Assembly: GCF_006345805.1 (NCBI RefSeq)
Contig: NW_021835070.1
Location: 1-42,617 of the forward strand
DNA length: 42,617 nucleotides
From: Octopus sinensis
Taxonomy: Eukaryota
Direction: 5' to 3'
The position numbers were made by a program, and so were the translations under genes. The notes under the pieces are model-generated. The model saw only the letters and a list, made by a program, of their open reading frames with translations, was not told the origin of the DNA and searched no databases. Shown here in pieces: positions 3,124 through 39,699 of this stretch (position 1 is the first letter of the stretch; each line of letters opens with the position of its first letter).

Positions 3124-6100
3124 CTATGTTGGCTGTAGATAGGTATCTTGTATTTGTTGTCCCTTTAGTATTGTGGCTGCAACTGGATTGTCATTGGTAT
3201 ATTCTGCAAAATATCAAATATACAAACACAAATTACATTTCAATATAACAACTCCAATATATAAAGATACAAACATTGATCTTATATTACACTAAGCATA
3301 ACATTATATATTGTCCTACAGTAATAAAGGCAATTACATTTATATGTTATGTTTTGATAAAAGTTACCTGGTTCTGCAGGTATCTCATCATATGGTTTAG
3401 TCTTGCCATTACTCTTGCTAGCTTCTCTGTCCTTTTGGGATGTTAAGGTGTCACTGTTGTAAGACATGATGGAACTGGTGCGACGTCCTTGACTATGGAT
3501 TGAATCACATCTCTGTTGATTAGAAAAAAAAGCAGAAGAAACATTCACATTTCATTTCTAGAATGTTCGTGGTAAGACTAAGAAAGGAATACTTTTATGG
3601 AGTTGAAATGCTATAATTAAATTTTTTAACTAATAAAAATAAACTGGAATTCACAATTAAATAAAATGAAAATATTGTTCAATGAAATACTTATATGCAA
3701 ATTTTAAATGGGTATTACTAGTAAAAAGTAAAATTATGAAACATCTTTCATCTTTTACGGAAAAAATATAAGAAAGGGATATGACATGTAAAAAAAACAA
3801 GATGTATAGCATACGTTTTCAGGAATATTGTGAAGAAATGTGATGCAACAACTGGATTGTTTCAAAATATATTTACCTGAGGCACAGGTGGAAGTCTCCT
3901 TTGTGTTGTTGAGAATTTCCACTCATCTGGTGTCTGTTCCATCTCCAGAAAAAACTGACTTTTAGATTTTATTGTCTGAAGATTTCGGTTAAATATCTCT
4001 TCTGCATTTCTCGTTATTGCAACAGGATTGTTAGTCTGATACAGTAATTGTCTCATCTCAGTCTGAGAGAGAAAGTTGGGATTCTCTGCTGTTGTGGGTG
4101 AGTTATTTGTGTGATTAATACATCTGAAAACACACAGTGTTATGGACACTACAATAGCCACAGATAGTATTACAGCTGCTGCTACAATGATAATTACCCA
4201 AGTCATATTCAGGTCGTGACCAGACTGGAATGGCACAGCAGTCAACATTGGAGATGTATCATTACTAACAAACAGTGTTAGTATGATAGCAGTTGTTGCT
4301 GATTGAACTGGAGTACCACCGTCTTTCACTATAAACTGCAGCTCATATGTTCCTGCATCATTTTGGTAAACTGTGCGAGAGAAAGATAACACACCAGTGT
4401 GTGAGTTCACTGTAAACAGGTTTTATCATTGGATCTCAGTATTCCATATGTGAGGAAAGCATTGTTTCCAGTGTCTTTGTCAGATGCTCTCAGAATTGTG
4501 ATGTCCTTCTTACTGTGTGGATGGTAGTGGACATCGAGATTGTAAGGGTCATTATTAGGAAACGTAAAATACGGAGCATTATCATTTTTATCTAGAATCT
4601 CAATAACAATATTGCAGTGTCACTGAGAGAAGGTGTTCCATTATCTTTCACTAAAACCTTGAACTTATAGATGTCTTTCATTTCTCGATCTATTGGTTGT
4701 GATGTAGAAATAAATCCATATTTTGTCAGTTGGAAAGGAATGTTATCATTGTTGTTATCATTGATGATAGAATATGTAAGTTGGCCTCCATCTTCAAGAT
4801 CTGGGTCTGTAGCATTGATGAAGCCAATAGGGAAGTCAACTTTCTGGTTTTCATAGGTGAGGAATTGGAATGTTTCTTTGGTAAAATGTGGTTCTACATC
4901 ATTGACATCAGTTACTTTGACAGAGAAATATTTTTTACTTTCTAGTTGAGGTGACCCCATGTCATGACACACAATAGATGCTTTATAGTGGTCCCTTATC
5001 TCTCTGTCAAGGTGGCCCTTAACAATCATTTTATATTCTTTAGAATCTATTTTGGCAAGTTTAAATTTATCATGTTTTAAATCACAGATAACCTCACCAT
5101 TAGGTCCACTATCAGTGTCAGTGACCATAACATAAGCTATAAAACTATCTACTTCACTGTCTTCTGAAACTGCAGCTGAGCTCTCTGATAAAGGAGATAC
5201 AAAATCTATATTTATCAATGGAGCATTATTCTGGTTATTAACTATATGAATCTGAACTGCTGCAACAGATTTTTTTGGTGGTTTTCCTCCATCCCTTGCT
5301 TCAATAAATAACTTATAATACTGCATTTTACTAAAATGAAAGCTGTCATGTAAAAATAAATCTCCAGTTTTCTTATCTAATACAAAATATTTCTGGATAT
5401 TTCGAGATGTTTTATGGTTGAAATGATACGAAATCCTTCCATTGTCTCCAGAATCTTTATCTGTGGCCTTTAAAGTAAAAATTGGTAAATGTCTTTGATG
5501 TGAATTACTTACAGATGTGTTGTACAGGTCGTGTGAAAATACAGGTGTGTTATCATTGACATCAGTTACAGATATGTGTACCTTGAGTGTAGCTGTTTTG
5601 GGAGGATTCCCTCCATCTTTAGCTTCAAGGTTAACATGTATGAGTCTTTTACTTCCCTGTCTAACTTATCTTCAAGAATTATTTCAGGTGTGAAAATACC
5701 TTTGTGTTTTGTGACAGAGAGTGAAAATGGTTCTCTTTTACTTTTCTTGATCATATATGTAATTTGGGAATTTTTTATTGAAATATCTTCATCAATGGCA
5801 TTTAAAAGTGGGATTTTAGTACCTTTAAAATCTCTCTCTAAAAACTTTATTGTGATTTCATTCTGTGGAAATTCTGGAGAATGGTCATTGATGTCATCTA
5901 TTAATATTTTAATTTTTAGAATCTTCATAAATGTTTTTCCTTTTCTCACTGCTACTTTAACTATTCTGGAACATTCTTTGTTGTATGTACACAGGGACTC
6001 TGCATCCAGTGTCTGAGTTGTGTATAGTTTTCCTGAGTTGGTGACATTAAATAAGTGAGAACCACTCTCGACTGTCCTTTGTAGTTGTGTAAATGTAATG

Positions 6101-6270
6101 AGAGTGTGTTGTTGATGTGTGAGAGGGTGTGATAAGTTAGAGTCAACAGCAATGTCTCCTATATAGGTGTGAGGTCTGTCTTCTTCCTTGACATGGTATG
6201 TAATATCTATGGACAGTACAAGGGTGATCAGTAAATGTAGAAGACACAGTAGACCAATATATGCTGTCAT
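3124..6270 (-). CDS. Pcdh: Protocadherin gene 1 (6 EC + TM + cytoplasmic tail), three 1-bp deletions as assembled
   Basis: Coding exons 6270-3877, 3512-3368 and 3203-3124 with GT-AG sites in consistent phase. Cadherin motifs LDRE and DxNDN, EC1 Cys loop. Single-base losses relative to paralogs at about 5629, 4614 and 4421-4424. Confidence 0.9.
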
Positions 6271-6424
6271 GTCTGGAATTCTTCATCACATTTCAGCAGG
6301 AGAAATTGCTACAAAACATGAGAAATACATTTAAAGTTTATTTATAATTCAACAAATCTAATTATATTTACAATAATCACTGTGACACATCTATTTCTAT
6401 CTGGAAACGTGTTCCATTTGTCAA

Positions 6425-9160: not shown

Positions 9161-9388
9161 AAATATACAGCTTAATTGAAGAAAGAGAACAAAAAACGTA
9201 GTGACAATTGTGATTGACTTAGAAACAAGAGAGATCTTTTCATCAAATGAAGAAATAATCTCACAATATTTACATGCTAAAGGAAATAAATGTATAATAT
9301 TTGTTTGCAGTAAGGGACTATTTTATATAAAGTAAAAGAATTATGAATATTTTTTTTACCACAATTATTTACATAATTACAACACGAG

Positions 9389-11124: not shown

Positions 11125-11815
11125 TTTCTTGTATAATGTTGTCTTGTGTGATTCTGACATTAAAAGGTGTAATCCAGATTGAAGTAATTGCATTACAATG
11201 TCTACTGCAGTTGTGTTGTTAATGGTGGAAGTGATGGCTAGATCTCTCGATCCTCCACTGTCCCAGTCCCTGTATATATACAACATGGCAGACATTTTAG
11301 ATATTATCCTTACCCTGTCTTTCATTAGAAACACAAATAATATAAATGTTATAATGAATATGAAAAGATAATAAGAGAGAGAGAGAGAGAGAGAGAGACT
11401 TACCTGCATTGTTTAATCCTTCACTGTAGTTGTGTGTGATGGATGATGTGTATCCTGCTGTAGTGTTCCACTCCAACTACTGCTGCTGCTGCTGTAGTGG
11501 TATTATAGTGGTACTGCTGCTGTTGTAGTAGTGTTCCTGTGTTACTGCTGCTGCTGCTGCTGTTCCTGTGTAACTGCTGATATAATAGTGTGACAGTTGC
11601 TGTATGTAGTGGGAGGTGAGATGTTAGCCAGATGCTGGTGTGTGCTAGTTACAACTCTATGTCCTCCACACACACACACACACACACAATTGTGTGTATG
11701 ATGAACAAAGAAAAAAGCTATCAGCCTCACTTTCAATATTGAAAGAAATATAGAAAATCTCTCTCATCCAATAGGAAATTATTGCAATGTTGTCTGTGTC
11801 ACACAAACACATCAA
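11125..11815 (-). promoter_or_regulatory. Promoter / leader cassette copy B (gene 1)
   Basis: CCAAT at 11768-11772; donor after 11404; matching acceptor ttttgtag before 6308. Confidence 0.7.
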
Positions 11816-12457
11816 ATAACAGAAGCCACATGGAAGTAAAGCAGTTTGTAGTGCTAAGAATTTCGTTTGTGTTTAATATTAATAAGCAAAGAAACTTCAT
11901 ATTTTCCTTTTATCTTCAAGTTATAAACTATTTGATATTCTAGTCTAGAAATTAATCTTTATAATTATTTAAATTCAAAATTATATTTGACGCTAATATT
12001 GATTTTAAACTGCTATATAATGGTGGAAAATAATTAATTCTAACTTTTTATCTTTGAATATTTATGAATTTGTCTGATGCTTAACTTACAAATTCTATAA
12101 TACAATAAATATACGATTTCCTTAGTTGGTTTTGAAATATAATCATATATTTCAGGTAAATATTATGAAATGAGTTATGAACTACTTCATGTAAAATTAG
12201 GGTTTTTAGATGAATATGAGAAAAATAAAATCTATAACAGTTGAAACAAACTAAAGAAGTATGGAAATATAGTTTAAAATATTAACATTATTTAAGTATC
12301 AGACATGGAAATTATACACCATAAGGAAGATACTGTTGGCCGTTTATGTGTGCGATGTGTGAAAAAAACATAGAGTTGATATTTTTATAGGAATATAAAG
12401 TATTGTATAAGATTTGGTGTGAGAGAGAATCATTTAACAATAGTCATGGAACATCTA

Positions 12458-15400
12458 CTATGTTGGCTGTAGATAGGTATCTTGTATTTGTTGTCCCTTT
12501 AGTATTGTGGATGCAACTGGATTGTCATTGGTATATTCTGTAAAATATCAAATATACAAACACAAATTACATTTCAATATAACAACTCCAATATATAAAG
12601 GTAGAAACATTGATCTTGTATTACACTAAGCATAACATTATATATTGTCCTACAGTAATAAAGGCAATTACATTTATATGTTATGTTTTGATAAAAGTTA
12701 CCTGGTTCTGCAGGTATCTCATCATATGGTTTAGTCTTGCCATTACTCTTGCTAGCTTCTCTGTCCTTTTGGGATGTTAAGGTGTCACTGTTGTAAGACA
12801 TGATGGAACTGGTACGACGTCCTTGACTATGGATTGAATCACATCTCTGTGGATTAGAAAACAAAGCAGGGTGAAACAATATAAAATAAAAGTAGCAATT
12901 GCATCTATATTCTGGAATGTTCCTAGAATGAAAGAACAGATTAAAGCTTTGAATTCAACAAAAATATAATTGAAGATTTTCTTAGTAAATTATAATAAAC
13001 ATTGAGGAGAGAATTAACAAATATATTAGTGCAAAGAAATATTTATAATTGCTTCTCCAAAAAGTAAATTTATGAAATGCCTCACCCGGGGCACTGATAT
13101 TATAGGCGCAGGAGTGGCTGTGTGGTAAGTAGCTTGCTAACCAACCACACGGTTGCGGGTTCAGTCCCACTGCGTGGCATCTTGGGCAAGTGTCTTCTGC
13201 TATAGCCCCGGGCTGACCAATGCCTTGTGAGTGGATTTGGTAGACGGAAACTGAAAGAAGCCTGTCGTATATATGTATATATATGTATATGTGTGTGTGT
13301 TTGTGTGTCTGTGTTTGTCCCCCTAGCATTGCTTGACAACCGATGCTGGTGTGTTTAGGTCCCCGTCACTTAGCGGTTCGGCAAAAAGAGACCGATAGAA
13401 TAAGTACTAAAAGGTGGTGCTCCAGCATGGCCGCAGTCAAATGACTGAAACAAGTAAAAGAGTAAAGAGTAAGAGTATCAATAATCTTTTATAAAGAAGA
13501 TATAAGGAATATGATATGACATGTAAATGAAATAAAATATATAAAACATGTTTTCAGAAATATTGATCACAAATATCTAACAAGAAAATTATTTTAAAAT
13601 ATATTTACCTGAGGCACAGGTGGAAGTCTCCTCTGTGTTGTTGAGAATTTCCACTCATCTGGTGTCTGTTCCATCTCCAGAAAAAACTGACTTTTAGATT
13701 TTATTGTCTGAAGATTTCGGTTAAATATCTCTTCTGCATTTCTCGTTATTGCAACAGGATTGTTAGTCTGATACAGTAATTGTCTCATCTCAGTCTGAGA
13801 GAGAAAGTTGGGATTCTCTGCTGTTGTGGGTGAGTTATTTGTGTGATTAATACATCTGAAAACACACAGTGTTATGGACACTACAATAGCCACAGATAGT
13901 ATTACAGCTGCTGCTACAATGATAATTACCCAAGTCATATTCAGGTCGTGACCAGACTGGAATGGCACAGCAGTCAACATTGGAGATGTATCATTACTAA
14001 CAACAGTGTTAGTATGATAGCAGTTGTTGCTGATTGAACTGGAGTACCACCGTCTTTCACTATAAACTGCAGCTCATATGTTCCTGCATCATTTTGGTAA
14101 ACTGTGCGAGAGAAAGATAACACACCAGTGTGTGAGTTCACTGTAAACAGGTTTTTATCATTGGATCTCAGTATTCCATATGTGAGGAAAGCATTGTTTC
14201 CAGTGTCTTTGTCAGATGCTCTCAGAATTGTGATGTCCTTCTTACTGTGTGGATGGTAGTGGACATCGAGATTGTAAGGGTCATTATTAGGAAACGTAAA
14301 ATACGGAGCATTATCATTTTTATCTAGAATCTCAATAACAATATTGGCAGTGTCATTGAGAGAAGGTGTTCCATTATCTTTCACTAAAACCTTGAACTTA
14401 TAGATGTCTTTCATTTCTCGATCTATTGGTTGTGATGTAGAAATGAATCCATATTTTGTCAGTTGGAAAGGAATGTTATCATTGTTGTTATCATTGATGA
14501 TAGAATATGTAAGTTGGCCTCCATCTCCAAGATCAGGGTCAGTAGCATTGATGAAGCCAATAGGGAAGTCAACTTTCTGGTTTTCATAGGTGAGGAATTG
14601 GAATGCCTCTTTGGTAAAATGTGGTTCTACATCATTGACATCAGTTACTTTGACAGAGAAATATTTTTTACTTTCTAGTTGAGGTGACCCCATGTCATGA
14701 CACACAATAGATACTTTATAGTGGTCCCTTATTTCTCTGTCAAGATGACCCTTAACAATCATTTTATATTCTTTAGAATCTATTTTGGCAAGTTTAAACT
14801 TATCATGTTTTAAATCACAGATAACCTCACCATTAGGTCCATTATCGGTGTCAGTGACCATAACATAAGCTATAAAACTACCAATTTTACTTGCTTCTGA
14901 AACTGCTGCTGAGCTCTCTGATAAAGGAGATACAAAATCTATATTTATCAATGGAGCATTATTCTGGTTATTAATAATGTGAATCTGGACTTTGGTTACA
15001 GAACTTAAATGTGGATTTCCTTCATCCTGTGCTTCAATAAATAATTTATATGATTGCTTTTTACTAAATTGAAAGCTGTCATGTAAAAACAGATCTCCAG
15101 TCTTCTTATTTAATACAAAATATTTCTGGATATTTCGAGAGGTTTTGTGGTTGAAATGGTAAGAAATCTTTCCATTGTCTCCAGAATCTTTATCTGTGGC
15201 CTTTAAAGTAAAAATTGGCAAATGTCTTTGATGTGAATTACTTATAGAGATGTTGTAAAGTTTCTGTGAAAATACAGGTACATTATCATTGACATCTGTC
15301 ACAGATATGTGTACCTTGAGTATAGCTGTTTTGGGAGGGTTTCCTCCATCTTTAGCTTCCAGAGTCAACATATATGAATCTTTGAGTTCCCTGTCTAATT

Positions 15401-16007
15401 TGTCTCCTAAAACTAGAGCTGGTATGAAAACACCATCATATCGCTTTTCAACTGAGAGAGAAAATGGTTCTCTTTTACTTTTCTTAATCATATATGTTAT
15501 TTGTGAATTCTGTATTGAAATATCTTGATCAATGGCATTTAAAAGTGAGATTTTAGTACCTTGAAGGTGACTCTCAAGAAATTCAATTTGAACTTCATTC
15601 TTTGGGAATTCTGGTGAGTGGTCATTGATGTCTTCTATTAATATTTTTATCCTTAGAATCTTCATAAAAGTTTCTTCTTTCCTCACTGCTACTTTGACAA
15701 TTTTGGAACATTCCTTGTTGTATGTACACAGAGACTCAGCATCCAGTGTTTGAGTAGTGTATAGTTTTCCTGAGTTGGTGACATTAAATAAGTGAGAACC
15801 ACTCTCGACTGTCCTTTGTAGTTGTGTAAATGTAATGAGAGTGTGTTGTTGATGTGTGAGAGGGTGTGATAAGTTGGAGTCAACAGCAATGTCTCCTATA
15901 TAGGTGTGAGGTCTGCCTTCTTCCTTGACATAGTATGTAATATCTATGGACAGTACAAGGGTGATCAGTAAATGTAGAAGACACAGTAGACCAATATATG
16001 CTGTCAT
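12458..16007 (-). CDS. Pcdh: Protocadherin gene 2, one 1-bp deletion just before the TM segment as assembled
   Basis: Exons 16007-13609, 12846-12702 and 12537-12458. The 677-aa ORF shifts frame at 14002-14003 (caaca versus caaaca in the paralogs). Confidence 0.92.
13105..13476 (+). mobile_element. Near full-length tRNA-derived SINE in the intron after the large exon of gene 2
   Basis: A-box-like gtggctgtgtgg, B-box-like ggttcagtcc, core-like ttgggcaagtgtctt, internal (TA)/(TG) tract and taaaagag-type tail; absent from the paralogous introns. Confidence 0.8.
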
Positions 16008-18167: not shown

Positions 18168-18211
<44 letters not shown>

Positions 18212-18414: not shown

Positions 18415-18927
18415 TATGTGATTCTGAGATTAAAAGATGTAATCCAGTTCAAAGTAATTGTATTACTGCAGTTATTGTTGTTAATGGTGGCAGTGATGGC
18501 TAGATCTCTCGATCCTCCACTGTCCCAGTCCCTGTATATATACAACATGGCAGACATTTTAGATATTATCCTTACCCTGTCTTTCATTAGAAACACAAAT
18601 AATATAAATGTTATAATGAATATGAAAAGATAATAAAGAGAAGAAAGGGAGAGAGAGAGACTTACCTGCATTGTTTAATCCTTCACTGTAGTTGTGTGTG
18701 ATGGATGATGTGTATCCTGCTGTAGTGTTCCACTCCAACTGCTGCTACTGCTGCTGTAGTGGTATTATAGTGGTACTGCTGCTGTTGTAGTAGTGTTCCT
18801 GTGTTACTGCTGCTGCTGCTGCTGTTCCTGTGTAACTGCTGATATAATAGTGTGACAGTTGCTGTATGTAGTGGGAGGTGAGATGTTAGCCAGATGCTGG
18901 TGTGTGCTAGTTACAACTCTATGTCCT

Positions 18928-18960
<33 letters not shown>

Positions 18961-19086
18961 TGTGTGTATGATGAACAAAGAAAAAAGCTATCAGCCTCAC
19001 TTTCAATATTGAAAGAAATATAGAAAATCTCTCTCATCCAATAGGAAATTACTGCAATGTGGTCTGTGTCACACAAACACATCAAA
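18415..19086 (-). promoter_or_regulatory. Promoter / leader cassette copy C (gene 2)
   Basis: CCAAT at 19038-19042; donor after 18666; acceptor ctttatag before 16045. Confidence 0.7.
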
Positions 19087-19727: not shown

Positions 19728-22700
19728 CTATGTTGGCTGTAGATAGGTATCTTGTATTTGTTGTCCCTTTAGTATTGTGGCTGCCACTGGATTGTCATTG
19801 GTATATTCTGCAAAATATCAAATATACAAACACAAATTACATTTCAATATAACAACTCCAATATATAAAGATAGAAACATTGATCTTGTATTACACTAAG
19901 CATAACATTATATATTGTCCTACAGTAATAAAGGCAATTACATTTATATGTTATGTTTTGATAAAAGTTACCTGGTTCTGCAGGTATCTCATCATATGGT
20001 TTAGTCTTGCCATTACTCTTGCTAGCTTCTCTGTCCTTTTGGGATGTTAAGGTGTCACTGTTGTAAGACATAATGGAACTGGTGCGACGTTCTTGACTAT
20101 GGATTGAGTCACATCTCTGTTGATTAGAAAACAGAGTGAAACATAATGTTAAAAAGAGAAAAACATCTACATTTGCATTCTAGTATATTCCCTGTGTTAT
20201 AGAAAAAAGGAACATTTTATTTTTCAAAATAAAAAATATTATAATTAAATATTTTCTTATTTAATTAAAATGCATTAGAGTCAAAAATAAATCATAACAA
20301 ATGTATAGGTTAGATATTAATGCACAAATTTTAAATATATCTATTTGGTTAAGTATAAAATGAAGAAAAAATCATTGAATCTTTCACAAAATAAATGCAG
20401 TATATTTTTGTAATAAATCACTTAAATGTACAAAATACACGAAATAGAATATAATATGTAACAAATACAAGGTTCGGCTGAACACTTCGTAGGCTCAACA
20501 AGATCCTCACATAGAATGTGACCAAACAAGGTTTATTTTGCAACATAATCACAGAAAAAGGGATCTTGCATTAATACAGAGTTAGATCACTCCTAATAAA
20601 ACAGTCTTTATATTAAGAGTATTGTATTTCTATAATAGGCATTGTGACCGCTTTGCTATCACTAAATAAAGAATAATTAATTCAGAATGTCAAAATAAAC
20701 TATGACATTTGATTATTAAAAACAATACATGTACATTAGAATCTAAAGTTGATATTTTATAGAAATATTTGAACATACATCACTAATGGAAAGAATACTC
20801 TTGTATTTAAAATCATAAGGATATCAAAAACAAGATAATATTTACCTGAGGCACAGGTGGAAGTCTCCTTTGTGTTGTTGAGAATTTCCACTCATCTGGT
20901 GTCTGTTCCATCTCCAGAAAAAACTGACTTTTAGATTTTATTGTCTGAAGATTTCGGTTAAATATCTCTTCTGCATTTCTCGTTATTGCAACAGGATTGT
21001 TAGTCTGATACAGTAATTGTCTCATCTCAGTCTGAGAGAGAAAGTTGGGATTCTCTGCTGTTGTGGGTGAGTTATTCGTGTGATTAATACATCTGAAAAC
21101 ACACAGTGTTATGGACACTACAATAGCCACAGATAGTATTACAGCTGCTGCTACAATGATAATTACCCAAGTCATATTCAGGTCGTGACCAGACTGGAAT
21201 GGCACAGCAGTCAACATTGGAGATGTATCATTACTAACAAACAGTGTTAGTATGATAGCAGTTGTTGCTGATTGAACTGGAGTACCACCGTCTTTCACTA
21301 TAAACTGCAGCTCATATGTTCCTGCATCATTTTGGTAAACTGTGCGAGAGAAAGATAACACACCAGTGTGTGAGTTCACTGTAAACAGGTTTTTATCATT
21401 GGATCTCAGTATTCCATATGTGAGGAAAGCATTGTTTCCAGTGTCTTTGTCAGATGCTCTCAGAATTGTGATGTCCTTCTTACTGTGTGGATGGTAGTGG
21501 ACATCGAGATTGTAAGGGTCATTATTAGGAAACGTAAAATACGGAGCATTATCATTTTTATCTAGAATCTCAATAACAATATTGGCAGTGTCATTGAGAG
21601 AAGGTGTTCCATTATCTTTCACTAAAACGTTGAACTTATAGATATCTTTCATTTCTCGATCTATTGATTGTGATGTAGAAATGAATCCATATTTGGTCAG
21701 TTGGAAAGGAATGTTATCATTGTTGTTATCATTGATGATAGAATATGTAAGTTGGCCTCCATCTCCAAGATCAGGGTCTGTAGCATTGATGAAGCCAATA
21801 GGGAAGTCAACTTTCTGGTTTTCGTAGGTGAGGAATTGGAATGTCTCTTTGGTAAAATGTGGTTCTACATCATTGACATCAGTTACTTTGACAGAGAAAT
21901 ATTTTTTACTTTCTAGTTGAGGTGACCCCATGTCATGACACACAATAGATACTTTATAGTGGTCCCTTATTTCTCTGTCAAGATGGCCCTTAACAATCAT
22001 TTTATATTCTTTAGAATCTATTTTGGCAAGTTTAAATTTATCATGTTTTAAATCACAGATAACCTCACCATTAGGTCCACTATCAGTGTCAGTGACCATA
22101 ACATAAGCTATAAAACTACCAATTTTACTTGCTTCAGAAACTGCTGCTGAACTCTCTGTTAAAGGAGATACAAAATCTATATTTATCAATGGAGCAGTAT
22201 TCTGGTTATTAATAATGTGAATCTGGACTTTGGTTAAAGAACTTAAGGGTGGATTTCCTCCATCTCGTGCTTCAATAAATAATTTATAAGACTGCATTTT
22301 AGTAAACTGAAAATTGTCATGTAAAAACAAATCTCCAGTGTTCTTATCTAAAACAAAATATTTCTGGATATTTCGAGATGTTTTATGGTTGAAATGATAA
22401 GAAATCTTTCCATTGTCTCCAGAATCTTGATCTGAAGCTTTTAAAGTAAGAATTGGTAAATGTCTTTGATGTGAATTACTTATAGAGATGTTGTAGATTT
22501 CCTGTGGAAATACAGGTGTATTATCATTAACATCTGTTACAGATATGTGTACTTTGAGTGAAGCTGTTTTTGGTGGGTTCCCTCCATCTTTAGCTTCTAG
22601 TATCAACATATAATAGTCATTGAGTTCCCTGTCTAATCTATCTTCTAGAATTAGCGCAGGTATGAAAATACCCTTCTGTTTTGTGACAGAGAGAGAAAAT

Positions 22701-23242
22701 GGTTCGCTTTTACTTTTTTTAATTATATATGTAATTTGAGAATTTTTGATTGAAATATCTTTATCAATTGCATTCAGAAGAGGGATTTTGCTTCCTTTAC
22801 TCTCTCTTTCTGAAAAATGAATCTTAACTTCATTTTGTGGAAATTCTGGAGAATGGTCATTGATGTCTTCTATTAATATTTTTATTTTGAGAATTTTCAT
22901 AAATGCTTCTTCTTTCCTCACTGCTACTTTAACTATTCTGGAACATTCCCTGTTGTATGTACACAGAGACTCAGCATCCAGTGTTTGAGTAGTGTATAGT
23001 TTTCCTGAGTTGGTGACATTAAATAAGTGAGAACCACTCTCGACTGTCCTTTGTAGTTGTGTAAATGTAATGAGAGTGTGTTGTTGATGTGTGAGAGGGT
23101 GTGATAAGTTAGAGTCAACAGCAATGTCTCCTATATAGGTGTGAAGTCTGTCTTCTTCATTGACATGGTATATAATATCTATGGACAGTACAAGGGTGAT
23201 CAGTAAATGTAGAAGACACAGTAGACCAATATATGCTGTCAT
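19728..23242 (-). CDS. Pcdh: Protocadherin gene 3, intact, 873 aa predicted
   Basis: Exons 23242-20846 (2397 nt), 20116-19972 (145 nt) and 19807-19728 (80 nt). Signal peptide, six EC repeats, TM WVIIIVAAAVILSVAIVVSITLCVF, C-terminus ...DTYLQPT*. Confidence 0.95.
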
Positions 23243-24940
23243 GTCTGGGATTCTTCATCACATTTCAGCAGGAGAAATTGCTATAAAAGACAACAAATAT
23301 TTAAACATTAAGTACAATAAAATAAGTTCATTTGAAGTTATAATAACCATTATATAAATGATTATTGATTGTATGTCTTTTACATGTGCTCTAAATAATT
23401 CAAAATGTTTCTTTTAATCTAACAAGCTAAGTGACAATATATAGATGATGCCGCTTCTTTGGAAAAAGGCAACAACCTTTCTGTGTTTAGAATTGCATTT
23501 AGAATGTTTTGGCATGACAAGTTTCATAATTTACTATTGAGAGAGTACTTAGAAAGGGACAACGTCTTGATATTGATTTCTAATTATGGCACAAGGCTAG
23601 CAGTTTTGGGGGAGGGGTTAAGTTGCTTACATCGATCCCAGTGCTCACCTGGTACTTATTTTATTAACCCCAAAAGGATGAAAGGCAAAGTCAAACCTGG
23701 TGGAATTTGAACTCAGAATGTAAAGGCAGACGAAATACTGCTGAGCAGTTTGCTTGGTAAGATAATAATTCTAGCAGCATATTGCCTCACAGTAGATTGA
23801 TACTGAAATATCACATCTTTGTTGACTCCATGAGTATCTGATGAGGATATTTCATTGAGATATTTTGTAACAAATGTTTAATCTTGTTCAGGCTCCATGT
23901 CTTCCTTAGAAACGATTTCAAAACAGACACGGAGCCTGAACAGCCTTTCAGCTGGTCAGTTCCTACCAGACCATCCAACCCATACTAGCATGAAAAATGG
24001 ACATCAAATGATGATGACAATGGTGATTAGATGTAATCAATTTACAGTTAGATATTTAGAATTTAATCCACACTGTAGTTATATGTTGGAATATTAACTG
24101 ATAATGCTGTTAATGATTCTATTTTTGGTTGAAAGAATAAATGTAATGCAAAACATATCTTTATATTGTAGAAGTGTATGTAATACCTCTCTGTAGAAAT
24201 ATGAAGCCAAGTTCCATTCCTCAATACACACACCAATATAAACACCTTCAGGCACACATATATATTACAAGCAAGCAAAACAGTCAATATTCTTCTGGAT
24301 AGGTAACAACACTGGGTGGACAAAGTAAACATATTGGAGGTAGACAAAAGGATAGATAAAGAAACTGAGGCAGTCAGAGAAGATACCAGAACAATTACAA
24401 TTAGACTTGTCATAGACAACATGACTGCAGCCATTATCTCTTCACTTAAACTGCAAACAAGAGGAACAGATGAACAACAGGATTGTTTCAAAAAACTCTC
24501 TTATGGATCATCATGATAACAAAATAAAAATAAGAAAACAGTGGAAATTTTACCGGTGAGTGTGTTACATTATAAGGCACAAAAAGAAAATGATTCTCCC
24601 CAAAATGAGTTTATATTTCACACAAAATATTTTGAATAAAAAAGCTAGACAAGATTATATTTATCATCCATTGTAATGATAATGGTGACGAGGAACATTC
24701 TTTGCTTATTATGCACAAATGAATATATAATGTATATATATATATATATATATAGGGATATTACTAATGTTAGAATTCATAAATTATTAACACTGTCTTA
24801 TTGGCTATAATCAATGTTTTTTGATAGTTAAATAAATGCACACACACACATACACGCACACACATATATCAGTTTGGACTATATTAAACAATTCTATATA
24901 AGATATATAGTTTAATATCCTTTGTATAATGTTGTCTTAT
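22826..24940. repeat. Near-identical duplicated or converted segment, copy 1
   Basis: Matches 29009-31120 at an offset of about 6183, including intron sequence and embedded SINE and RTE remnants. Confidence 0.9.
23585..23788 (-). mobile_element. tRNA-derived SINE
   Basis: Family core; duplicated at 29768-29971. Confidence 0.7.
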
Positions 24941-25590
24941 GTGATTTTGATATTAAAAGGTGTAATCCAGATTGAAGTAATTGTATTACAATGACTACTG
25001 CAGCTGTTGTTAATGGTGGAAGTGATGGCTAGATCTCTCGATCCTCCACTGTCCCAGTCCCTGTATATATACAACATGGCAGACATTTTAGATATTATCC
25101 TTACCCTGTCTTTCACTAGAAACACAAATAATATAAATGTTATAATGAATATGAAAAGATAATAAAGAGAAAGAGAGAGAGAGAGAGACTTACCTGCATT
25201 GTTTAATCCTTCACTGTAGTTGTGTGTGATGGATGATGTGTATCCTGCTGTAGTGTTCCACTCCAACTGCTGCTGCTGCTGTAGTGGTATTATAGTGGTA
25301 CTGCTGCTGTTGTAGTAGTGTTCCTGTGTTACTGCTGCTGCTGTTCCTGTGTAACTGCTGATATAATAGTGTGACAGTTGCTGTATGTAGTGGGAGGTGA
25401 GATGTTAGCCAGATGCTGGTGTGTGCTAGTTACAACCCTATGTCCTCCACACACACACACACAATTGTGTGTATGATGAACAAAGAAAAAAGCTATCAGC
25501 CTCACTTTCAATATTGAAAGAAATATAGAAAATCTCTCTCATCCAATAGGAAATTACTGCAATGTTGTCTGTGTCACACAAACACATCAA
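24930..25590 (-). promoter_or_regulatory. Promoter / leader cassette copy D (gene 3)
   Basis: CCAAT at 25543-25547; donor after 25194; acceptor ttttatag before 23280. Confidence 0.7.
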
Positions 25591-26489
25591 ACAAGAGAAG
25601 TCATATTAATGACCCAAAGCAGCATCACTTTTTCTTTTTAATAAAAACTCTACATTACATATTTAATGTTAGGAAATAAGACTTATATATATTTATAATA
25701 ATATTTCTGGATATTTGATGGATTATTATTAACTTGACTATAAGAATACATATTCGAGATTTCTATTAGAAACAAATTGATTTCATGGTAAGTCATCAAA
25801 CATAATTATTTAAGAAGTTTACATGATTAGTCAAACTAGAAACAAAGTAAATTAGGAGAAGCAAAACTATTTCCATTTTAAAAAGACACATGATTTTCCA
25901 ATATGTTTTATGTCTTATTTCATAAAATATATAACATTTAAATCTTAACACTTCAAAAAACTTTATAAATATGTCGGTAAGTTTAGTATATTAACAATAT
26001 AGGTAACAACACTTTATTGAATGTTGTGGGAATCAACACTTATCCATTAATGCTGGTATTGATCAATGAAATTTAAAATACATTGAACATAAAGTGGTGT
26101 GAACAAAAGACGAAATGCAAATAAAATAAAACAATGGTAAAAGTGAGTATGATAATGTTAAATGGTAGAATTCATATCAAACTAAAATTCTATAACTAAA
26201 CTTCTGAGAATGATTCAGATTAAGTTGTGTATGTTTAGTGAAATGTATATACTAAGACTGAGAGGAAAACAACTATTTTGTAATAATGAACGTTGGTAAT
26301 GCAGAATAAGTTGTTTGTGGTATTTAACGTATCAGTGCTGCAAATTAGGGGTCATAATAGATGCCACTGTAAGGCCCTTATGTGTGATGTGTGAAAGAAA
26401 CATAGAGTTGATATTTTTATAGGAATATAAAGTATTGTATAAGATTTGGTGTGTGAGAGAATCATTTAACAATAGTCATAGAACATCTA

Positions 26490-29425
26490 CTATGTTGGCT
26501 GTAGATAGGTATCTTGTATTTGTTGTCCCTTTAGTATTGTGGCTGCCACTGGATTGTCATTGGTATATTCTGCAAAATATCAAATATACAAACACAAATT
26601 ACATTCCAATATAACAACTCCAATATATAAAGATAGAAACATTGATCTTGTATTACACTAAGCATAACATTATATATTGTCCTACAGTAATAAAGGCAAT
26701 TACATTTATATGTTATGTTTTGATAAAAGTTACCTGGTCCTGCAGGTATCTCATCATATGGCTTAGTCTTGCCATTACTCTTGCTAGCTTCTCTGTCCTT
26801 TTGGGATGTTAAGGTGTCACTGTTGTAAGACATGATGGAACTGGTACGACGTCCTTGACTATGGATTGAATCGCATCTCTGTTGATTAGAAAACAAAGCA
26901 GGGTGAAGCATAATGTTAAAAAGAAGAAACATTAACATTTCTATTCTAGAATGCTCCTGATGAAAGACAAGAAAGGCATGCTTTTATAATGTGTAGAAAT
27001 ATTATCGAATTTTTTCAACTATATTTACCTGAGGCACAGGTGGAAGTCTCCTTTGTGTTGTTGAGAATTTCCATTCATCTGGTGTCTGTTCCATCTCCAG
27101 AAAAAACTGACTTTTAGATTTTATTGTCTGAAGATTTCGGTTAAATATCTCTTCTGCATTTCTCGTTATTGCAACAGGATTGTTAGTCTGATACAGCAAT
27201 TGTCTCATCTCAGTCTGAGAGAGAAAGTTGGGATTCTCTGCTGTTGTGGGTGAGTTATTTGTGTGATTAATACATCTGAAAACACACAGTGTTATGGACA
27301 CTACAATAGCCACAGATAGTATTACAGCTGCTGCTACAATGATAATTACCCAAGTCATATTCAGGTCGTGACCAGACTGGAATGGCACAGCAGTCAACAT
27401 TGGAGATGTATCATTACTAACAAACAGTGTTAGTATGATAGCAGTTGTTGCTGATTGAACTGGAGTACCACCGTCTTTCACTATAAACTGCAGCTCATAT
27501 GTTCCTGCATCGTTTTGGTAAACTGTGCGAGAGAAAGATAACACACCAGTGTGTGAGTTCACTGTAAACAGGTTTTTATCATTGGATCTCAGTATTCCAT
27601 ATGTGAGGAAAGCATTGTTTCCAGTGTCTTTGTCAGATGCTCTCAGAATTGTGATGTCCTTCTTACTGTGTGGATGGTAGTGGACATCGAGATTGTAAGG
27701 GTCATTATTAGGAAACGTAAAATACGGAGCATTATCATTTTTATCTAGAATCTCAATAACAATATTGGCAGTGTCATTGAGAGAAGGTGTTCCATTATCT
27801 TTCACTAAAACCTTGAACTTATAGATGTCTTTCATTTCTCGATCTATTGATTGTGATGTAGAAATAAATCCATATTTTGTCAGTTGGAAAGGAATGTTAT
27901 CATTGTTGTTATCATTGATGATAGAATATGTAAGTTGGCCTCCATCTCCAAGATCAGGGTCTGTAGCATTGATGAAGCCAATAGGGAAGTCAACTTTCTG
28001 GTTTTCATAGGTGAGGAATTGGAATGTCTCTTTGGTAAAATGTGGTTCTACATCATTGACATCAGTTACTTTGACAGAGAAATATTTTTTACTTTCTAGT
28101 TGAGGTGACCCCATGTCATGACACACAATAGATACTTTATAGTGATCCCTTATTTCTCTGTCAAGATGGCCCTTAACAATCATTTTATATTCTTTAGAAT
28201 CTATTTTGGCAAGTTTAAATTTATCATGTTTTAAATCACAGATAACCTCACCATTAGGTCCACTATCATTGTCAGTGACCATAACATAAGCTATAAAACT
28301 ACCAATTTTACTTGCTTCTGAAACTGCTGCTGAGCTCTCTGATAAAGGAGATACAAAATCTATATTTATCAATGGAACATTATTCTGATTATTGACTACG
28401 TGAATCTGAACTGCTGCAACAGATTTTTTGGGTGGCTTTCCTCCATCTCTTGCTTCAATAAATAACTTATAAAACTGCATTTTACTAAACTGAAAATTAT
28501 CATGTAAAAATAAATCTCCAGTTTTCTTACTTAATACAAAATATTTCTGAATATTTCGAGATGTTTTATGGTTGAAATAATATGAAACCTTTCCATTGAG
28601 TCCAGAATCTTGATCTGTGGCTTTTAAAGAAAGAATTGGTAAATGTCTTTGATGTGAATTATTGATAGAAATGTTGTAAAGTTTCTGAGGAAATACAGGT
28701 ATGTTATCATTGACATCTGTCACAGATATATGTACCTTGAGTGTAGCTGTTTTGGGTGGGTTCCCTCCATCTTTGGCTTCCAGGGTCAACATATATGAAT
28801 CTTTTATTTCCCTGTCTAATTTGTCGTCTAGAATTAGTTCAGGTATAAAAATACCATCACGTTTTGTGACAGAGAGAGAAAAAGGTTCTTTTTTATTTTT
28901 CTCAATTATATATATAATTTGAGAATTTTTTATTGAAATATCTTCATCAATGGCATTCAGAAGAGAGATTCTAGTTCCTTTACTATCGCTTTCAGAAAAT
29001 CCAATTTCAACTTCATTTTGTGGAAATTCTGGTGAATGGTCATTGATGTCTTCTATTAATATTTTTATTTTGAGAATTTTCATAAATGCTTCTTCTTTCC
29101 TCACTGCTACTTTAACTATTCTGGAACATTCCCTGTTGTATGTACACAGAGACTCAGCATCCAGTGTTTGAGTAGTGTATAGTTTTCCTGAGTTGGTGAC
29201 ATTAAATAAGTGAGAACCACTCTCGACTGTCCTTTGTAGTTGTGTAAATGTAATGAGAGTGTGTTGTTGATGTGTGAGAGGGTGTGATAAGTTGGAGTCA
29301 ACAGCAATGTCTCCTATATAGGTGTGAGGTCTGTCTTCTTCCTTGACATGGTATGTAATATCTATGGACAGTACAAGGGTGATCAGTAAATGTAGAAGAC
29401 ACAGTAGACCAATATATGCTGTCAT
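26490..29425 (-). CDS. Pcdh: Protocadherin gene 4, intact, 873 aa predicted
   Basis: Exons 29425-27029, 26878-26734 and 26569-26490; same domain layout as gene 3. Confidence 0.95.
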
Positions 29426-31120
29426 GTCTGGAATTCTTCATCACATTTCAGCAGGAGAAATTGCTATAAAAGACAACAAATATTTAAACATTAAGTACAA
29501 TAAAATAAGTTCATTCGAAGTTATAATAAACATTATATAACTGATTATTGTTTGTATGTCTTTTTGATGTGCTCTAAATAATTCAAAATGTTTCTTTTAA
29601 TCTAACAAGCTAACTTACAATATATAGATGATGCCGCTTCCTTGGAATAAGGCAGCAACCTTTCTGTGTTTAGAATTGCATTTAGAATATTTTGGCATGA
29701 CAAGTTTCATAATTTACTATTGAGAGAGTACTTAGAAAGGGACAACGTCTTGATATTGATTTCTAATTATGGCACAAGGCTAGCAGTTTTGGGGGAGGGG
29801 TTAAGTTGCTTACATCGATCCCAGTGCTCACCTGGTACTTATTTTATTAACCCCAAAAGGATGAAAGGCAAAGTCAAACCTGGTGGAATTTGAACTCAGA
29901 ATGTAAAGGCAGACGAAATACTGCTGAGCAGTTTGCTTGGTAAGATAATAATTCTAGCAGCATATTGCCTCACAGTAGATTGATACTGAAATATTACATC
30001 TTTGTTGACTCCATGAGTATCTGATGAGGATATTTCATTGAGATATTTTGTAACAAATGTTTAATCTTGTTCAGGCTCCATGTCTTCCTTAGAAACGATT
30101 TCAAAACAGACACGGAGCCTGAACAGCCTTTCAGCTGGTCAGTTCCTACCAGACCATCCAACCCATACTAGCATGAAAAATGGACATCAAATGATGATGA
30201 CAATGGTGATTAGATGTAATCAATTTACAGTTAGATATTTAGAATTTAATCCACACTGTAGTTATATGTTGGAATATTAACTGATAATGCTGTTAATGAT
30301 TCTATTTTTGGTTGAAAGAATAAATGTAATGCAAAACATATCTTTATATTGTAGAAGTGTATGTAATACCTCTCTGTAGAAATATGAAGCCAAGTTCCAT
30401 TCCTCAATACACACACCAATATAAACACCTTCAGGCACACATATATATTACAAGCAAGCAAAACAGTCAATATTCTTCTGGATAGGTAACAACACTGGGT
30501 GGACAAAGTAAACATATTGGAGGTAGACAAAAGGATAGATAAAGAAACTGAGGCAGTCAGAGAAGATACCAGAACAATTACAATTAGACTTGTCATAGAC
30601 AACATGACTGCAGCCATTATCTCTTCACTTAAACTGCAAACAAGAGGAACAGATGAACAACAGGATTGTTTCAATAAAACTCTCTTATGGATCATCATGA
30701 TAACAAAATAAAAATAAGAAAACAGTGGAAATTTTACCGGTGAGTGTGTTACATTATAAGGCACAAAAAGAAAATGATTCTCCCCAAAATGAGTTTATAT
30801 TTCACACAAAATATTTTGAATAAAAAAGCTAGACAAGATTATATTTATCATCCATTGTAATGATAATGGTGACGAGGAACATTCTTTGCTTATTATGCAC
30901 AAATGAATATATAATGTATATATATATATATATATAGGGATATTACTAATGTTAGAATTCATAAATTATTAACACTGTCTTATTGGCTATAATCAATGTT
31001 TTTTGATAGTTAAATAAATGCACACACACATACACGCACACACATATATCAGTTTGGACTATATTAAAAAATTCTATATAAGATATATAGTTTAATATCC
31101 TTTGTATAATGTTGTCTTAT
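29009..31120. repeat. Near-identical duplicated or converted segment, copy 2
   Basis: Matches 22826-24940. Confidence 0.9.
29768..29971 (-). mobile_element. tRNA-derived SINE (duplicated with the segment)
   Basis: Matches 23585-23788. Confidence 0.7.
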
Positions 31121-31783
31121 GTGACTCTGACATTAAAAGGTGTAATCCAGATTAAAGCAATTGTATTACAATGACTACTGCAAATTTTGTTGTTGCCAAT
31201 GGTGGAAGTGATGGCTAGATCTCTCGATCCTCCACTGTCCCAGTCCCTGTATATATACAACATGGCAGACATTTTAGATATTATCCTTACCCTGTCTTTC
31301 ATTAGAAACACAAATAATATAAATGTTATAATGAATATGAAAAGATAATAAAGAGAGAGAGAGAGAGAGAGAGAGACTTACCTGCATTGTTTAATCCTTC
31401 ACTGTAGTTGTGTGTGATGGATGATGTGTATCCTGCTGTAGTGTTCCACTCCAACTACTGCTGCTGCTGCTGTAGTGGTATTATAGTGGTACTGCTGCTG
31501 TTGTAGTAGTGTTCCTGTGTTACTGCTGCTGCTGCTGTTCCTGTGTAACTGCTGATATAATAGTGTGACAGTTGCTGTATGTAGTGGGAGGTGAGATGTT
31601 AGCCAGATGCTGGTGTGTGCTAGTTACAACTCTATGTCCTCCACACACACACACAATTGTGTGTATGATGAACAAAGAAAAAAGCTATCAGCCTCACTTT
31701 CAATATTGAAAGAAATATAGAAAATCTCTCTCATCCAATAGGAAATTACTGCAATGTTGTCTGTGTCACACAAACATATCAAA
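31110..31783 (-). promoter_or_regulatory. Promoter / leader cassette copy E (gene 4)
   Basis: CCAAT at 31735-31739; donor after 31382; acceptor before 29463. Confidence 0.7.
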
Positions 31784-32816
31784 TATGAGAAGTTGTGTTA
31801 AAATAAACAAGACTGATAATTTCCACAGAACATTATATATTTAGTTTTAATAATCAAACCATTTCATCTTTACATTCCTTTTAATTATTTTTGAAATAGA
31901 AATATCTTTTTATATTTAATGTTATAATTGGTAACTACAAAACTACAATCAGTCATAATATATATTTTTTTTAAACAGTTCTGTATATTTTACTTGTTAT
32001 CTATAAAGAAATGAATGTGACAAACCCATAGCTTTTGACATACAAAGTATAGAAGAATAAAGAGAAATATGTTAGAACATTGTGATTTTGAGGAAATGTA
32101 TTTAATATTTAACCATTATCACCTCAATATCTCACCTATGTAAAGCAAAAATCCTTTAGCAATATTTCTTATTCAAAATAGAATCATGGCTTATTAGTCA
32201 TATTAATGTAAAGGTGAGGAATAAAATTAATTCTTACTTTTATTAAAATATTAATGTTTCCCTCTCAAAACTAACTTACTAAATGTTACAATGTAGTATA
32301 ATGTAAAGCTATCTCAAATATTTTTGGTGATATTAGAAGAATCTATAGAATCGTATGGGCAAATTATATCATGAAAGGAACATTAAATAATGTGTAATTG
32401 TATTTTGCTGGTTAGCTCCAGGAGGTTTTTCTGTTATACAAATGAAAATTATAAATCTAAAAGGGAAAATTAACAATCAGAAGCTTAATTAATATAAGTG
32501 GAACTATAATAATTGTTTGTTTATGTAACAACATCTGACAATTCCTGACCAGGCTTTTTTATTTTTCATACTTTGTAGAGTAAAATGCAGTAACATTTAA
32601 TGTTATATGAAGCCATAACAAACGAGTGGTGTCAACTGTTTTAAATAAGCCAATGATGGTTATACAGGACAATATTTGTACTATTAGTGTTAATTAGGGC
32701 TCAATATCAATGACAATGAAAGCTTTATGAGTGGTAAATATCATATTAATGCTTTAAATCAATGTAAAATATTGGGTGTGTGAGAGAATCATTTAACAAT
32801 AGTCATGGAACATCTA

Positions 32817-35800
32817 CTATGTTGGCTGTAGATAGGTATCTTGTATTTGTTGTCCCTTTAGTATTGTGGCTGCCACTGGATTGTCATTGGTATATTCTGC
32901 AAAATATCAAATATACAAACACAAATTACATTTCAATATAACAACTCCAATGTATAAAGATAGAAACATAGATCTTATATTACACTAAGCATAACATTAT
33001 ATATTGTCCTACAGTAATAAAGGCAATTACATTTATATGTTATGTTTTGATAAAAGTTACCTGGTTCTGCAGGTATCTCATCATATGGTTTAGTCTTGCC
33101 ATTACTCTTGCTAGCTTCTCTGTCCTTTTGGGATGTTAAGGTGTCACTGTTGTAAGACATGATGGAACTGGTACGACGTCCTTGACTATGGATTGAATCA
33201 CATCTCTGGTGATTAGAAAACAGAGTGAAACATAATGTTAAATCAAAGAAACATTCGCATTTATATTCTAGAATGTTTCCAGTAAGACTCGAGGAAGGAA
33301 TGCTGTTAAAATGTGCAGAAATAATGTAATTTTAAAGATCTACTAAGTTAATAAAAAGAACTTGGAGAAGTGATAAACAAAACGGAAAACTCATTTAATG
33401 AAGTATGTGAAAATTTTAGATCTATTATATTTACATACTAAGCAAATTAAAATATTTTGGAGTAAACAAAACAAAGATACTACTTTAATGAAATATTTGG
33501 AAATTTTAAATTTAAGACATCTGCAAAATGTAAAACTATCAAAAAGGGCACTGAGAAAATATAAAGAACATAACATGTAAATAAAACTAGATATTTAAAA
33601 TATGTCTTCATGAATGTTATACAAAAATGCTATCAAACAATAGAATTGTTTAAAATAATATTTACCTGAGGCACAGGTGGAAGTCTCCTTTGTGTTGTTG
33701 AGAATTTCCACTCATCTGGTGTCTGTTCCATCTCCAGAAAAAACTGACTTTTAGATTTTATTGTCTGAAGATTTCGGTTAAATATCTCTTCTGCATTTCT
33801 CGTTATTGCAACAGGATTGTTAGTCTGATACAGTAATTGTCTCATCTCAGTCTGAGAGAGAAAGTTGGGATTCTCTGCTGTTGTGGGTGAGTTATTTGTG
33901 TGATTAATACATCTGAAAACACACAGTGTTATGGACACTACAATAGCCACAGATAGTATTACAGCTGCTGCTACAATGATAATTACCCAAGTCATATTCA
34001 GGTCGTGACCAGACTGGAATGGCACAGCAGTCAACATTGGAGATGTATCATTACTAACAAACAGTGTTAGTATGATAGCAGTTGTTGCTGATTGAACTGG
34101 AGTACCACCGTCTTTCACTATAAACTGCAGCTCATATGTTCCTGCATCATTTTGGTAAACTGTGCGAGAGAAAGAAAACACACCAGTGTGTGAGTTCACT
34201 GTAAACAGGTTTTTATCATTGGATCTCAGTATTCCATATGTGAGGAAAGCATTGTTTCCAGTGTCTTTGTCAGATGCTCTCAGAATTGTGATGTCCTTCT
34301 TACTGTGTGGATGGTAGTGGACATCGAGATTGTAAGGGTCATTATTAGGAAACGTAAAATACGGAGCATTATCATTTTTATCTAGAATCTCAATAACAAT
34401 ATTGGCAGTGTCATTGAGAGAAGGTGTTCCATTATCTTTCACTAAAACCTTGAACTTATAGATGTCTTTCATTTCTCGATCTATTGGTTGTGATGTAGAA
34501 ATAAATCCATATTTTGTCAGTTGGAAAGGAATGTTATCATTGTTGTTATCATTGATGATAGAATATGTAAGTTGGCCTCCATCTCCAAGATCAGGGTCTG
34601 TAGCATTGATGAAGCCAATAGGGAAGTCAACTTTCTGGTTTTCATAGGTGAGGAATTGGAATGTCTCTTTGGTAAAATGTGGTTCTACATCATTGACATC
34701 AGTTACTTTGACAGAGAAATATTTTTTACTTTCTAGTTGAGGTGACCCCATGTCATGACACACAATAGATACTTTATAGTGGTCCCTTATTTCTCTGTCA
34801 AGATGGCCCTTAATAATTATCTTATATTCTTTAGAATCTATTTTGGCAAGTTTAAATTTATCATGTTTTAAATCACAGATAACCTCACCATTAGGTCCAC
34901 TATCATTGTCAGTGACCATAACATAAGCTATAAAACTATCTACTTCACTGTCTTCTGAAACTGCAGTGGAACTCTCTGTTAAAGGAGACACAAAATCTAT
35001 ATTTATCAACGGAACATTGTTTTGGTTATTAATTACATAAATGTGAATTCTGGCTACCGACGTTAGAGGTGGATTCCCACCATCTCTTGCTTCTATAAAT
35101 AAAGACTGCATCTTACTAAAGTAAAAATTATCATGTAAAAATAAATCTCCAGTTTTCTTATCCAATACAAAATATTTCTGGATATTTTGAGATGTTTTAT
35201 GGTTGAAATGGTAAGAAATCTTTCCATTGTCTCCAGAATCTTGATCTGTGGCTTTTAAAGTAAGAATTGGTAAATGTCTTTGATGTGAATTATTTATAGA
35301 GATATTATAGAGTTTCTGTGAAAATACAGGTGTGTTATCATTAACATCTGTCACAGATATGCGTACCTTGAGTGTACCTGTTCTGGGAGGGTTCCCACCA
35401 TCTTTAGCCTCTAAGGTCAATATATACAAATCTTTTACTTCCCTGTCTAATTTGTCTTCTAAAGTCAGTTCAGGTGTAAAAACACCATCATTATCTTTTG
35501 CCATATACAAAGAAAATGGTTCTCTTTTATGATATTTTATGTTATATGAAATTTGGGAATTCATGATGGTAATATCTCTGTCTATAGCATATGGAATTTT
35601 TTTCTGATTTCCTTTCAGACTATCTTCTGCAAACTTGATACCTATTTCATCATCCGTAAATTCTGGAGAATAGTCATTGATGTCTTCTATTATTATTTTC
35701 ACCTTCAAAATCTTCATGAAAGTTTTTCCTTTCCTCACTGCTACTTTAACTATTCTGGAACATTCCTTGTTGTATGTACACAGAGACTCAGCATCCAGTG

Positions 35801-36062
35801 TTTGAGTAGTGTATAGTTTTCCTGAGTTGGTGACATTAAATAAGTGAGAACCACTCTCGACTGTCCTTTGTAGTTGTGTAAGTGTAATGAGAGCGCGTTG
35901 CTCATGTTTGAGAGGGTGTGATAAGTTGGAGTCAACAGCAATGTCTCCTATATAGGTGTGAGGTCTGTCTTCTTCCTTGACGTGGTAGGTGATGTCTACA
36001 GACATTACAACAGACTGTTTTATATATAGCAAACACACCAAGTAAAAAACGTTTTCATTCAT
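32817..36062 (-). CDS. Pcdh: Protocadherin gene 5, intact, 873 aa predicted, divergent signal peptide and EC2
   Basis: Exons 36062-33666, 33205-33061 and 32896-32817; acceptor atttgtag before 36100. Confidence 0.95.
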
Positions 36063-39598: not shown

Positions 39599-39699
39599 AT
39601 TAATTACAGTAATAATTGATTTTCTTTATTACCTACAAATAGTTGACAGACAAGATTAAGGAAGGGACAGGACAACACATTGTCAGGTGACATAGATAC

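Follow-up and report, generated by a model that had tools for sequence, protein, structure and literature searches.

The window analysed here is the whole 42,617-nt stretch of Octopus sinensis DNA; it corresponds to the entire contig C11541 of assembly G000 and carries five protocadherin genes, all on the minus strand, with start codons at 36062, 29425, 23242, 16007 and 6270 (W01 to W05, respectively). The nearest named proteins are labelled as belonging to Octopus sinensis, O. vulgaris and Argonauta hians. The genes and their leader blocks are positioned as follows:

32817..36062, minus strand: W01, of the array-edge type; exon 1 36062-33666, intron 460 nt, exon 2 33205-33061, intron 164 nt, exon 3 32896-32817; intact
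26490..29425, minus strand: W02; exon 1 29425-27029, intron 150 nt, exon 2 26878-26734, intron 164 nt, exon 3 26569-26490; intact, with Pfam cadherin repeats
19728..23242, minus strand: W03; exon 1 23242-20846, intron 729 nt, exon 2 20116-19972, exon 3 19807-19728; intact
12458..16007, minus strand: W04; exon 1 16007-13609 (1-bp deletion near 14003), intron 762 nt, exon 2 12846-12702, exon 3 12537-12458
3124..6270, minus strand: W05; exon 1 6270-3877 (three 1-bp deletions), intron 364 nt, exon 2 3512-3368, exon 3 3203-3124
31388..31766, minus strand: non-coding first exon of W02; an RNA contig joins 31388-31766 to 29465
near 25200-25609, 18672-19128, 11410-11825 and 1829-2245: other copies of the leader block, 92-96% identical

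A same-strand array of 27 such genes is located at 60.49-60.73 Mb of contig C14 of the same assembly, and the window is likely the second haplotype of part of this array. Positions 31083-42617 match C14 at 99.5%, and below 31083 the window is still collinear with C14 genes 3-7, but is diverged and holds one gene fewer. The variable part of W01 is identical to that of C14 gene 2, and the signal peptide of W01 differs, being a version of its own. Non-coding DNA of window 1-31100 is 2-9% different from G000:C14:60515000-60553000, the likely haplotypes also differing by one gene, and the flank at 36111-42617 differs by 0.14%. Between the putative alleles, 12-28 of 219 EC2-3 residues differ, which is about the distance of each to its nearest O. 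vulgaris gene. The divergence below about 31100 reflects either highly divergent haplotypes or an assembly switch; the transition falls at the homogenised promoter/leader block, which is a candidate site of an unequal crossover or a mis-join. Small frameshifting indels occur in 12 of the 27 C14 copies and in two of the five window copies (W04 and W05), indicative of error-prone assembly here. A second contig, C11250, duplicates window 1-26459 with no mismatches and 12 gap bases; the 1-bp deletion at 5625 in W05 is absent from it and is likely a sequencing error, whereas the deletion near 14003 in W04 is present in both contigs and represents either an error or a pseudogene. Directly before the first full gene of the C14 array lies a partial gene (G000:C14:60490419-60491740) composed of constant-part pieces only.

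Each gene consists of a non-coding first exon and three coding exons of 2.4 kb, 145 nt and 80 nt, separated by a variable intron and a second intron of 164 nt. The lengths given by the initial annotation for the intron after the large exon (364, 762, 729, 150 and 460 nt) were reproduced exactly, and all of these introns have GT..AG boundaries. Both introns of W02 are spliced in RNA contigs of all four short-read runs, the RNA nature of which was judged from splice joints. The non-coding first exon is contained in a conserved promoter/leader block of ~750 bp, which is repeated upstream of each gene and is 92-98% identical in 25 of 26 C14 copies. This exon (window 31388-31640 and the four other leader blocks) carries CAG-rich repeats of 31 bp, and the paralogues also share a conserved stretch of about 300 nt in the intron that follows it. 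The encoded proteins have a signal peptide, six EC repeats, one transmembrane (TM) helix and a cytoplasmic tail, with Pfam matches to Cadherin_2 and five Cadherin stretches, and their top PDB matches are protocadherins. EC3 of all five copies is without the usual LDRE and DxND calcium motifs (in W02, window 28370-28500, comprising the EC3 E-F loop and the EC3-4 linker).

As tandem, same-strand, complete multi-exon genes with observed splicing, these genes belong with the clustered protocadherin sub-arrays described from coleoids (Albertin et al., 2022, PMC9068888; Styfhals et al., 2019, PMC6339937; Jiang et al., 2022, PMC9795677). In the portions of these accounts available, the sub-arrays are likewise head-to-tail multi-exon genes on one chromosome that arose by full-gene duplication, with no shared final exons. 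The earlier view that the genes use private rather than common exons is borne out by gene structure, since private exons 2 and 3 with intact GT..AG sites and gene-specific 3' ends are found in 26 of the 27 C14 genes and in all five window genes.

The distribution of identity within the genes divides them into two parts, which are given here for W02:

28286..29143, minus strand: variable module, aa 95-380 (EC1 F-G strands to EC4 A-B loop)
near 35777-34923, 22960-22103, 15725-14865 and 5988-5132, minus strand: equivalents of the variable module in the other four genes
27029..28195, minus strand: homogenised scaffold, aa 411-799 (late EC4, EC5, EC6, TM and first part of the tail); identity ends at the splice donor
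26570..26733, minus strand: second intron, 164 nt, ~2% divergent among paralogues and homogenised with its flanking exons

The initial annotation had described most of EC1 and everything from mid-EC4 to the stop codon as nearly identical, third positions included. Comparison of the five copies agreed with this description, nucleotide identity being 99.1% for aa 411-799 (97.9% at third positions) and 96.1% for aa 21-94, against 84.4% (75.3% at third positions) for aa 95-380. The same annotation had confined the strong divergence to EC2-EC3; the five EC2 starts on which it relied are all present, but the variable part is wider: it has two peaks and reaches from the EC1 F-G strands (about aa 100) as far as the EC4 A-B loop (about aa 380). 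Synonymous divergence is far from uniform along the exon. For the C14 paralogues (25 of the 27 genes, after removal of two with many indels), the dS values are as follows: early EC1 0.06, late EC1 0.44, EC2 0.58, EC3 0.42, EC4 0.10, EC5 0.03, EC6 0.02 and the surroundings of the TM helix 0.007, so that EC2 and EC6 differ about 30-fold. Identity starts at the acceptor ~40 nt before the ATG, ends within 10-20 nt of the donor, begins again from exon 2 and fades ~80 nt past the stop codon. Intron 2 differs by p=0.02 among 26 genes vs 0.35 for the last 100 nt of intron 1.

The variable part has been shuffled among copies rather than left untouched, and in this respect the earlier picture of an EC2-EC3 variable module, correct as to its diversity, needs to be amended. 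Successive segments of one gene's variable part resemble different paralogues, a PHI-like test was significant (p=0.0005), and the incompatibility of informative sites, 0.35 at short range, increases to 0.49 over long distances. A Sawyer-type tract test, the counterpart of the GENECONV analysis suggested earlier, was positive in five of 325 pairs, one of them allelic, but in none of the 325 on silent sites. Along the region pS and pN co-vary (rho 0.74), synonymous divergence peaks coinciding with amino-acid differences. Genes lying farther apart in the array are no more diverged in their scaffolds (rho -0.08, p=0.22), and weakly more diverged in their variable parts (rho 0.22). GC at four-fold sites is not significantly raised in the homogenised part (p=0.24; p=0.012 for GC3), and GC-biased conversion is accordingly weak at best. 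The ending of identity at splice sites had suggested conversion mediated by cDNA, which was rejected as the main route because intron 2, spliced out in all four RNA runs, is homogenised too. As a separate observation, the upstream introns of W02 and W03 (window 29471-30711 and 23291-24527) are 97.7% identical, yet the two genes are 15% different in early EC2, a pattern that represents either a recent duplication or a long conversion with a swapped module.

Comparisons between Octopus and Argonauta were made at the protein level only. Protein distances in EC5, EC6 and TM are 0.002-0.028 within each of G000, O. vulgaris and Argonauta, vs 0.08-0.18 between Octopus and Argonauta, whereas EC2-3 distances within a genus (0.19-0.33) are close to those between genera (0.28-0.33). 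The homogenised domains hold 35 fixed differences between the genera, and aa 95-353 hold none; in the latter region, 119 sites have at least two states common to both genera. Variability tends to fall on the same sites in the two genera (rho 0.57). Between two Argonauta subfamilies, differences affect 53% of the sites in EC2-3 but only 1-3% in EC5-TM, and at least two further subarrays repeat the pattern of variable and homogenised parts. Domain-wise trees with related species conflict as conversion predicts, in line with the earlier proposal that the identity is maintained by gene conversion: the EC5-TM tree (95 rows) separates the genera with an SH-aLRT of 99 and rejects a subfamily clade (p-AU 0.03), and the EC2-3 tree, from 31 hand-picked rows, rejects a genus split (p-AU 8.9e-83). 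Singleton orthologues diverge by 0.05-0.14 in EC5-6 between genera, like the converted genes, which indicates that these domains are not frozen. Concerted evolution of the array genes is therefore well supported, by silent sites and intron 2 within species and by protein sequences between genera.

By EC2-3, the first C14 gene pairs with the first gene of the Argonauta subfamily and the last with the last (the Argonauta order being by accession), so that the array is older than the Octopus-Argonauta split. Core EC2-3 sequences mostly cluster by genus with weak support (83), so that a slower turnover acts in EC2-3 also, and together with the intron-1 types shared by some genes this grouping shows whole-gene duplication and loss to be at work too. 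The claim that the duplications are old is borne out at the level of the array edges and the subfamilies rather than gene by gene in the core.

Several other explanations of the uneven identity were considered. Recent whole-gene duplication without conversion, the scaffold then being held by strong purifying selection and EC2-3 changing fast, would accord with the clustering of core EC2-3 by genus, with the shared intron-1 types, which do indicate some recent duplicates, and with the published burst at 8-14 Ma (PMC9795677); we nevertheless regard it as very unlikely, because homogenisation extends to synonymous sites and to intron 2 but not to intron 1 or the synonymous sites of EC2-3, because the Argonauta subfamilies are so far apart in EC2-3 and so similar in EC5-TM, and because the edge genes have orthologues across genera. 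That assembly or polishing collapsed similar parts into one consensus is a concern in view of the frameshifting indels described above, but appears highly improbable: separately deposited Argonauta and O. vulgaris proteins repeat the pattern with different residues, the scaffold of 29 genes retains 18 shared and 77 single variants, and in all four runs long RNA contigs with 1-5 differences cross the constant part. Equally improbable is a true shared tail, in which large exons would be spliced across genes to one set of final exons as in the vertebrate alpha and gamma clusters. The tail exons are indeed so alike that short-read contigs could not be assigned to a gene, and splicing of a large exon to the tail of a neighbour may go unseen in such data, yet nearly every gene has its own intact exons 2 and 3 with specific 3' ends, EC5-TM lies within the large exon and so could not be shared by splicing, and cephalopods are described in the relevant part of PMC9068888 as lacking shared final exons.

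Near the two ends of the variable part lie two loops, positioned in W02 as follows:

29087..29095, minus strand: EC1 F-G loop, aa 111-113; acidic in W02-W04, basic in W01 and W05
28301..28315, minus strand: EC4 A-B loop, aa 371-375; lysine where the EC1 loop is non-basic, acidic where it is basic

The charges of these loops are matched over ~260 residues, from one end of EC1-4 to the other. Among the 50 subfamily rows with both loop segments (allelic pairs included, and under a charge rule set in the light of earlier observations), the EC1 F-G loop is basic and the EC4 A-B loop acidic in 28 genes, and the former is non-basic and the latter lysine-bearing in 22, without a single exception, and the neighbouring Argonauta subfamily follows the rule in 15 of 15 cases. 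On the EC2-3 tree, 15 changes were counted for each loop state, and independent pairs agreed in eight of eight (p=0.008). When 1602 distant site pairs were compared in 26 genes, nine passed the Bonferroni threshold, eight of which connect the EC1 loop with the EC4 loop, the remaining one connecting EC2 192 with EC3 338 (p=2e-5). As the loops are at opposite ends of EC1-4, contact between them would require an antiparallel dimer. Solved structures of protocadherin dimers place EC1 (C-F-G face) against EC4 (A-B-E-D face) and EC2 (A-B-E-D face) against EC3 (C-F-G face) (PMC7082078). Dimer-type faces are more variable in three of four gene groups (p=5e-4, 4.5e-6 and 0.019; p=0.1 in the fourth, with 11 rows), in a coarse test that takes whole strands rather than exposed residues and assigns them from a predicted model (pLDDT 87.7). 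A complex prediction for two EC1-4 copies, in which the alignment was not used, gave a score of 0.01 and speaks neither for nor against such a dimer. The face enrichment and the EC1-EC4 and EC2-EC3 covariation would fit a putative antiparallel, self-binding EC1-4 dimer that may be isoform-specific. The antiparallel binding mode is shared with non-clustered delta-protocadherins (PMC7082078) and may be ancestral; the parallel with vertebrates lies in how the genes have diversified.

Positive selection was not detected by dN/dS, which is about 0.2-0.3 in EC2-3, and a site-class test for sites above 1 was unsupported in each domain (2dlnL about 1.0). A first site-class run had indicated positive selection (2dlnL 6.6 and 7.3) with the scale parameter at the grid edge, and this signal was gone with a wider grid. 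The dN/dS values below 1 throughout and the failure to find a positively selected site class would suit a purely mechanical escape, in which conversion is real and EC2-3 is spared because, having diverged beyond a threshold, it no longer serves well as a template, with no selection on specificity; so would the sharp ending of identity at splice sites where introns have diverged, and the co-variation of pS and pN. Such an escape leaves unexplained the charge match of two loops 260 codons apart in 50 of 50 rows, with a mosaic between them and homogenised DNA outside, as well as the variable sites common to Octopus and Argonauta, and we consider it unlikely. We favour the explanation, which we hold to be probable as a whole, that conversion homogenises the scaffold while selection spares the predicted self-binding surfaces. 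Repeated gene conversion between neighbours most likely homogenises the leader, early EC1, EC5-TM, the tail exons and the second intron within species, and selection likely removes conversion events by which the predicted surfaces of a head-to-tail self-binding dimer would be disrupted or made alike, with the result that diversity persists between the EC1 F-G hairpin and the EC4 A-B loop. The outcome would be a de facto constant region (EC5-6, TM and tail) without shared exons. We infer from these patterns that the exchange is conversion rather than another unequal kind, that selection forms the barrier, that EC1-4 make an antiparallel dimer and that the proteins act in neuronal self-recognition; the near-identical EC5-6 domains would permit promiscuous cis pairing.

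Cephalopod protocadherins expanded independently of the vertebrate cluster (PMC9068888; PMC4978886). In vertebrate clustered Pcdhs, EC2-3 are divergent and EC5-6 homogenised (Etlioglu et al., 2016, PMC4978886, citing Noonan et al., 2004), and EC1:EC4 and EC2:EC3 specificity has been published (PMC5106212; 10.1101/493106). The octopus array combines conversion-homogenised EC5-6 with divergent EC2-3 in the vertebrate manner. As in the vertebrate alpha, beta and gamma clusters, six EC domains are encoded in one large exon, dS is highest in EC2-3 and lowest in EC5-6, variation falls on the faces of the predicted antiparallel EC1-4 dimer and a conserved block precedes each gene. The contrast between highest and lowest dS is much stronger in octopus, at ~30 vs ~2.5 in two Xenopus rows of PMC4978886. 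Unlike the vertebrate alpha and gamma clusters, the octopus variable exons are not spliced, by gene structure, to one shared constant set, each gene having its own exons 2-3; each also has a non-coding first exon, and the two private tail exons and an intron are homogenised too. Vertebrate beta-Pcdhs also lack constant exons, but they are single-exon genes. Divergence peaks kept by selection against gene conversion are known from red/green opsin exon 5 and from MHC microconversion. The octopus array resembles these in that synonymous divergence peaks at amino-acid differences and short cassettes are shuffled among copies; it differs in having two distant peaks that need to match each other, consistent with a homophilic receptor. 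The EC2-3/EC5-6 pattern is familiar from vertebrates, and the octopus array joins to it a spared and matched module with a putative recognition role.

Gene conversion has been suggested, in general terms only, as a possible cause of similarity in cephalopod arrays (PMC9068888; PMC6339937); compared with the coleoid accounts available, the present analysis resolves conversion by domain and identifies the spared variable module and the matched loops. Our literature search found no domain-resolved conversion study in cephalopods, and subscription papers and supplements may contain one. Jiang et al. (PMC9795677) dated the burst by whole-gene distances, and the word "conversion" is absent from the main text of that paper in the form available. 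Whole-gene distances would misdate such arrays, the mean JC distance being 0.07 for the whole gene, 0.18 for the variable part and 0.011 for the scaffold.

The array would represent a second route to a constant/variable receptor layout, sparing the same domains as in vertebrates. According to a passage of Styfhals et al. (PMC6339937), nothing is known of the adhesion specificity of cephalopod protocadherins, and the covariation provides residue-level predictions for a possible neuronal identity code, pairing EC1 111-113 with EC4 371-375 and EC2 192 with EC3 334/338. Taken further, and here we would put the chances at somewhat less than even, octopods may possess a neuronal barcode of vertebrate logic, in which conversion builds a common scaffold for cis pairing and signalling in the absence of shared exons, selection keeps a two-state EC1:EC4 charge switch and a shuffled EC2:EC3 code matched for self-binding, shuffling is so rapid that an individual carries different barcodes on its two haplotypes, and the reported burst is largely a conversion artefact of an array that predates the Octopus-Argonauta split.

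Short-read RNA data are unable to count the array genes separately. Public gene models P0127, P0153, P0157 and P0162 (1794-5758 aa) merge several array genes, and many O. vulgaris models begin at an internal Met; database gene counts for the array are unreliable for these two reasons. Outside the protocadherin genes, window 37653-38039 contains a reverse-transcriptase-like fragment, presumably a LINE remnant.
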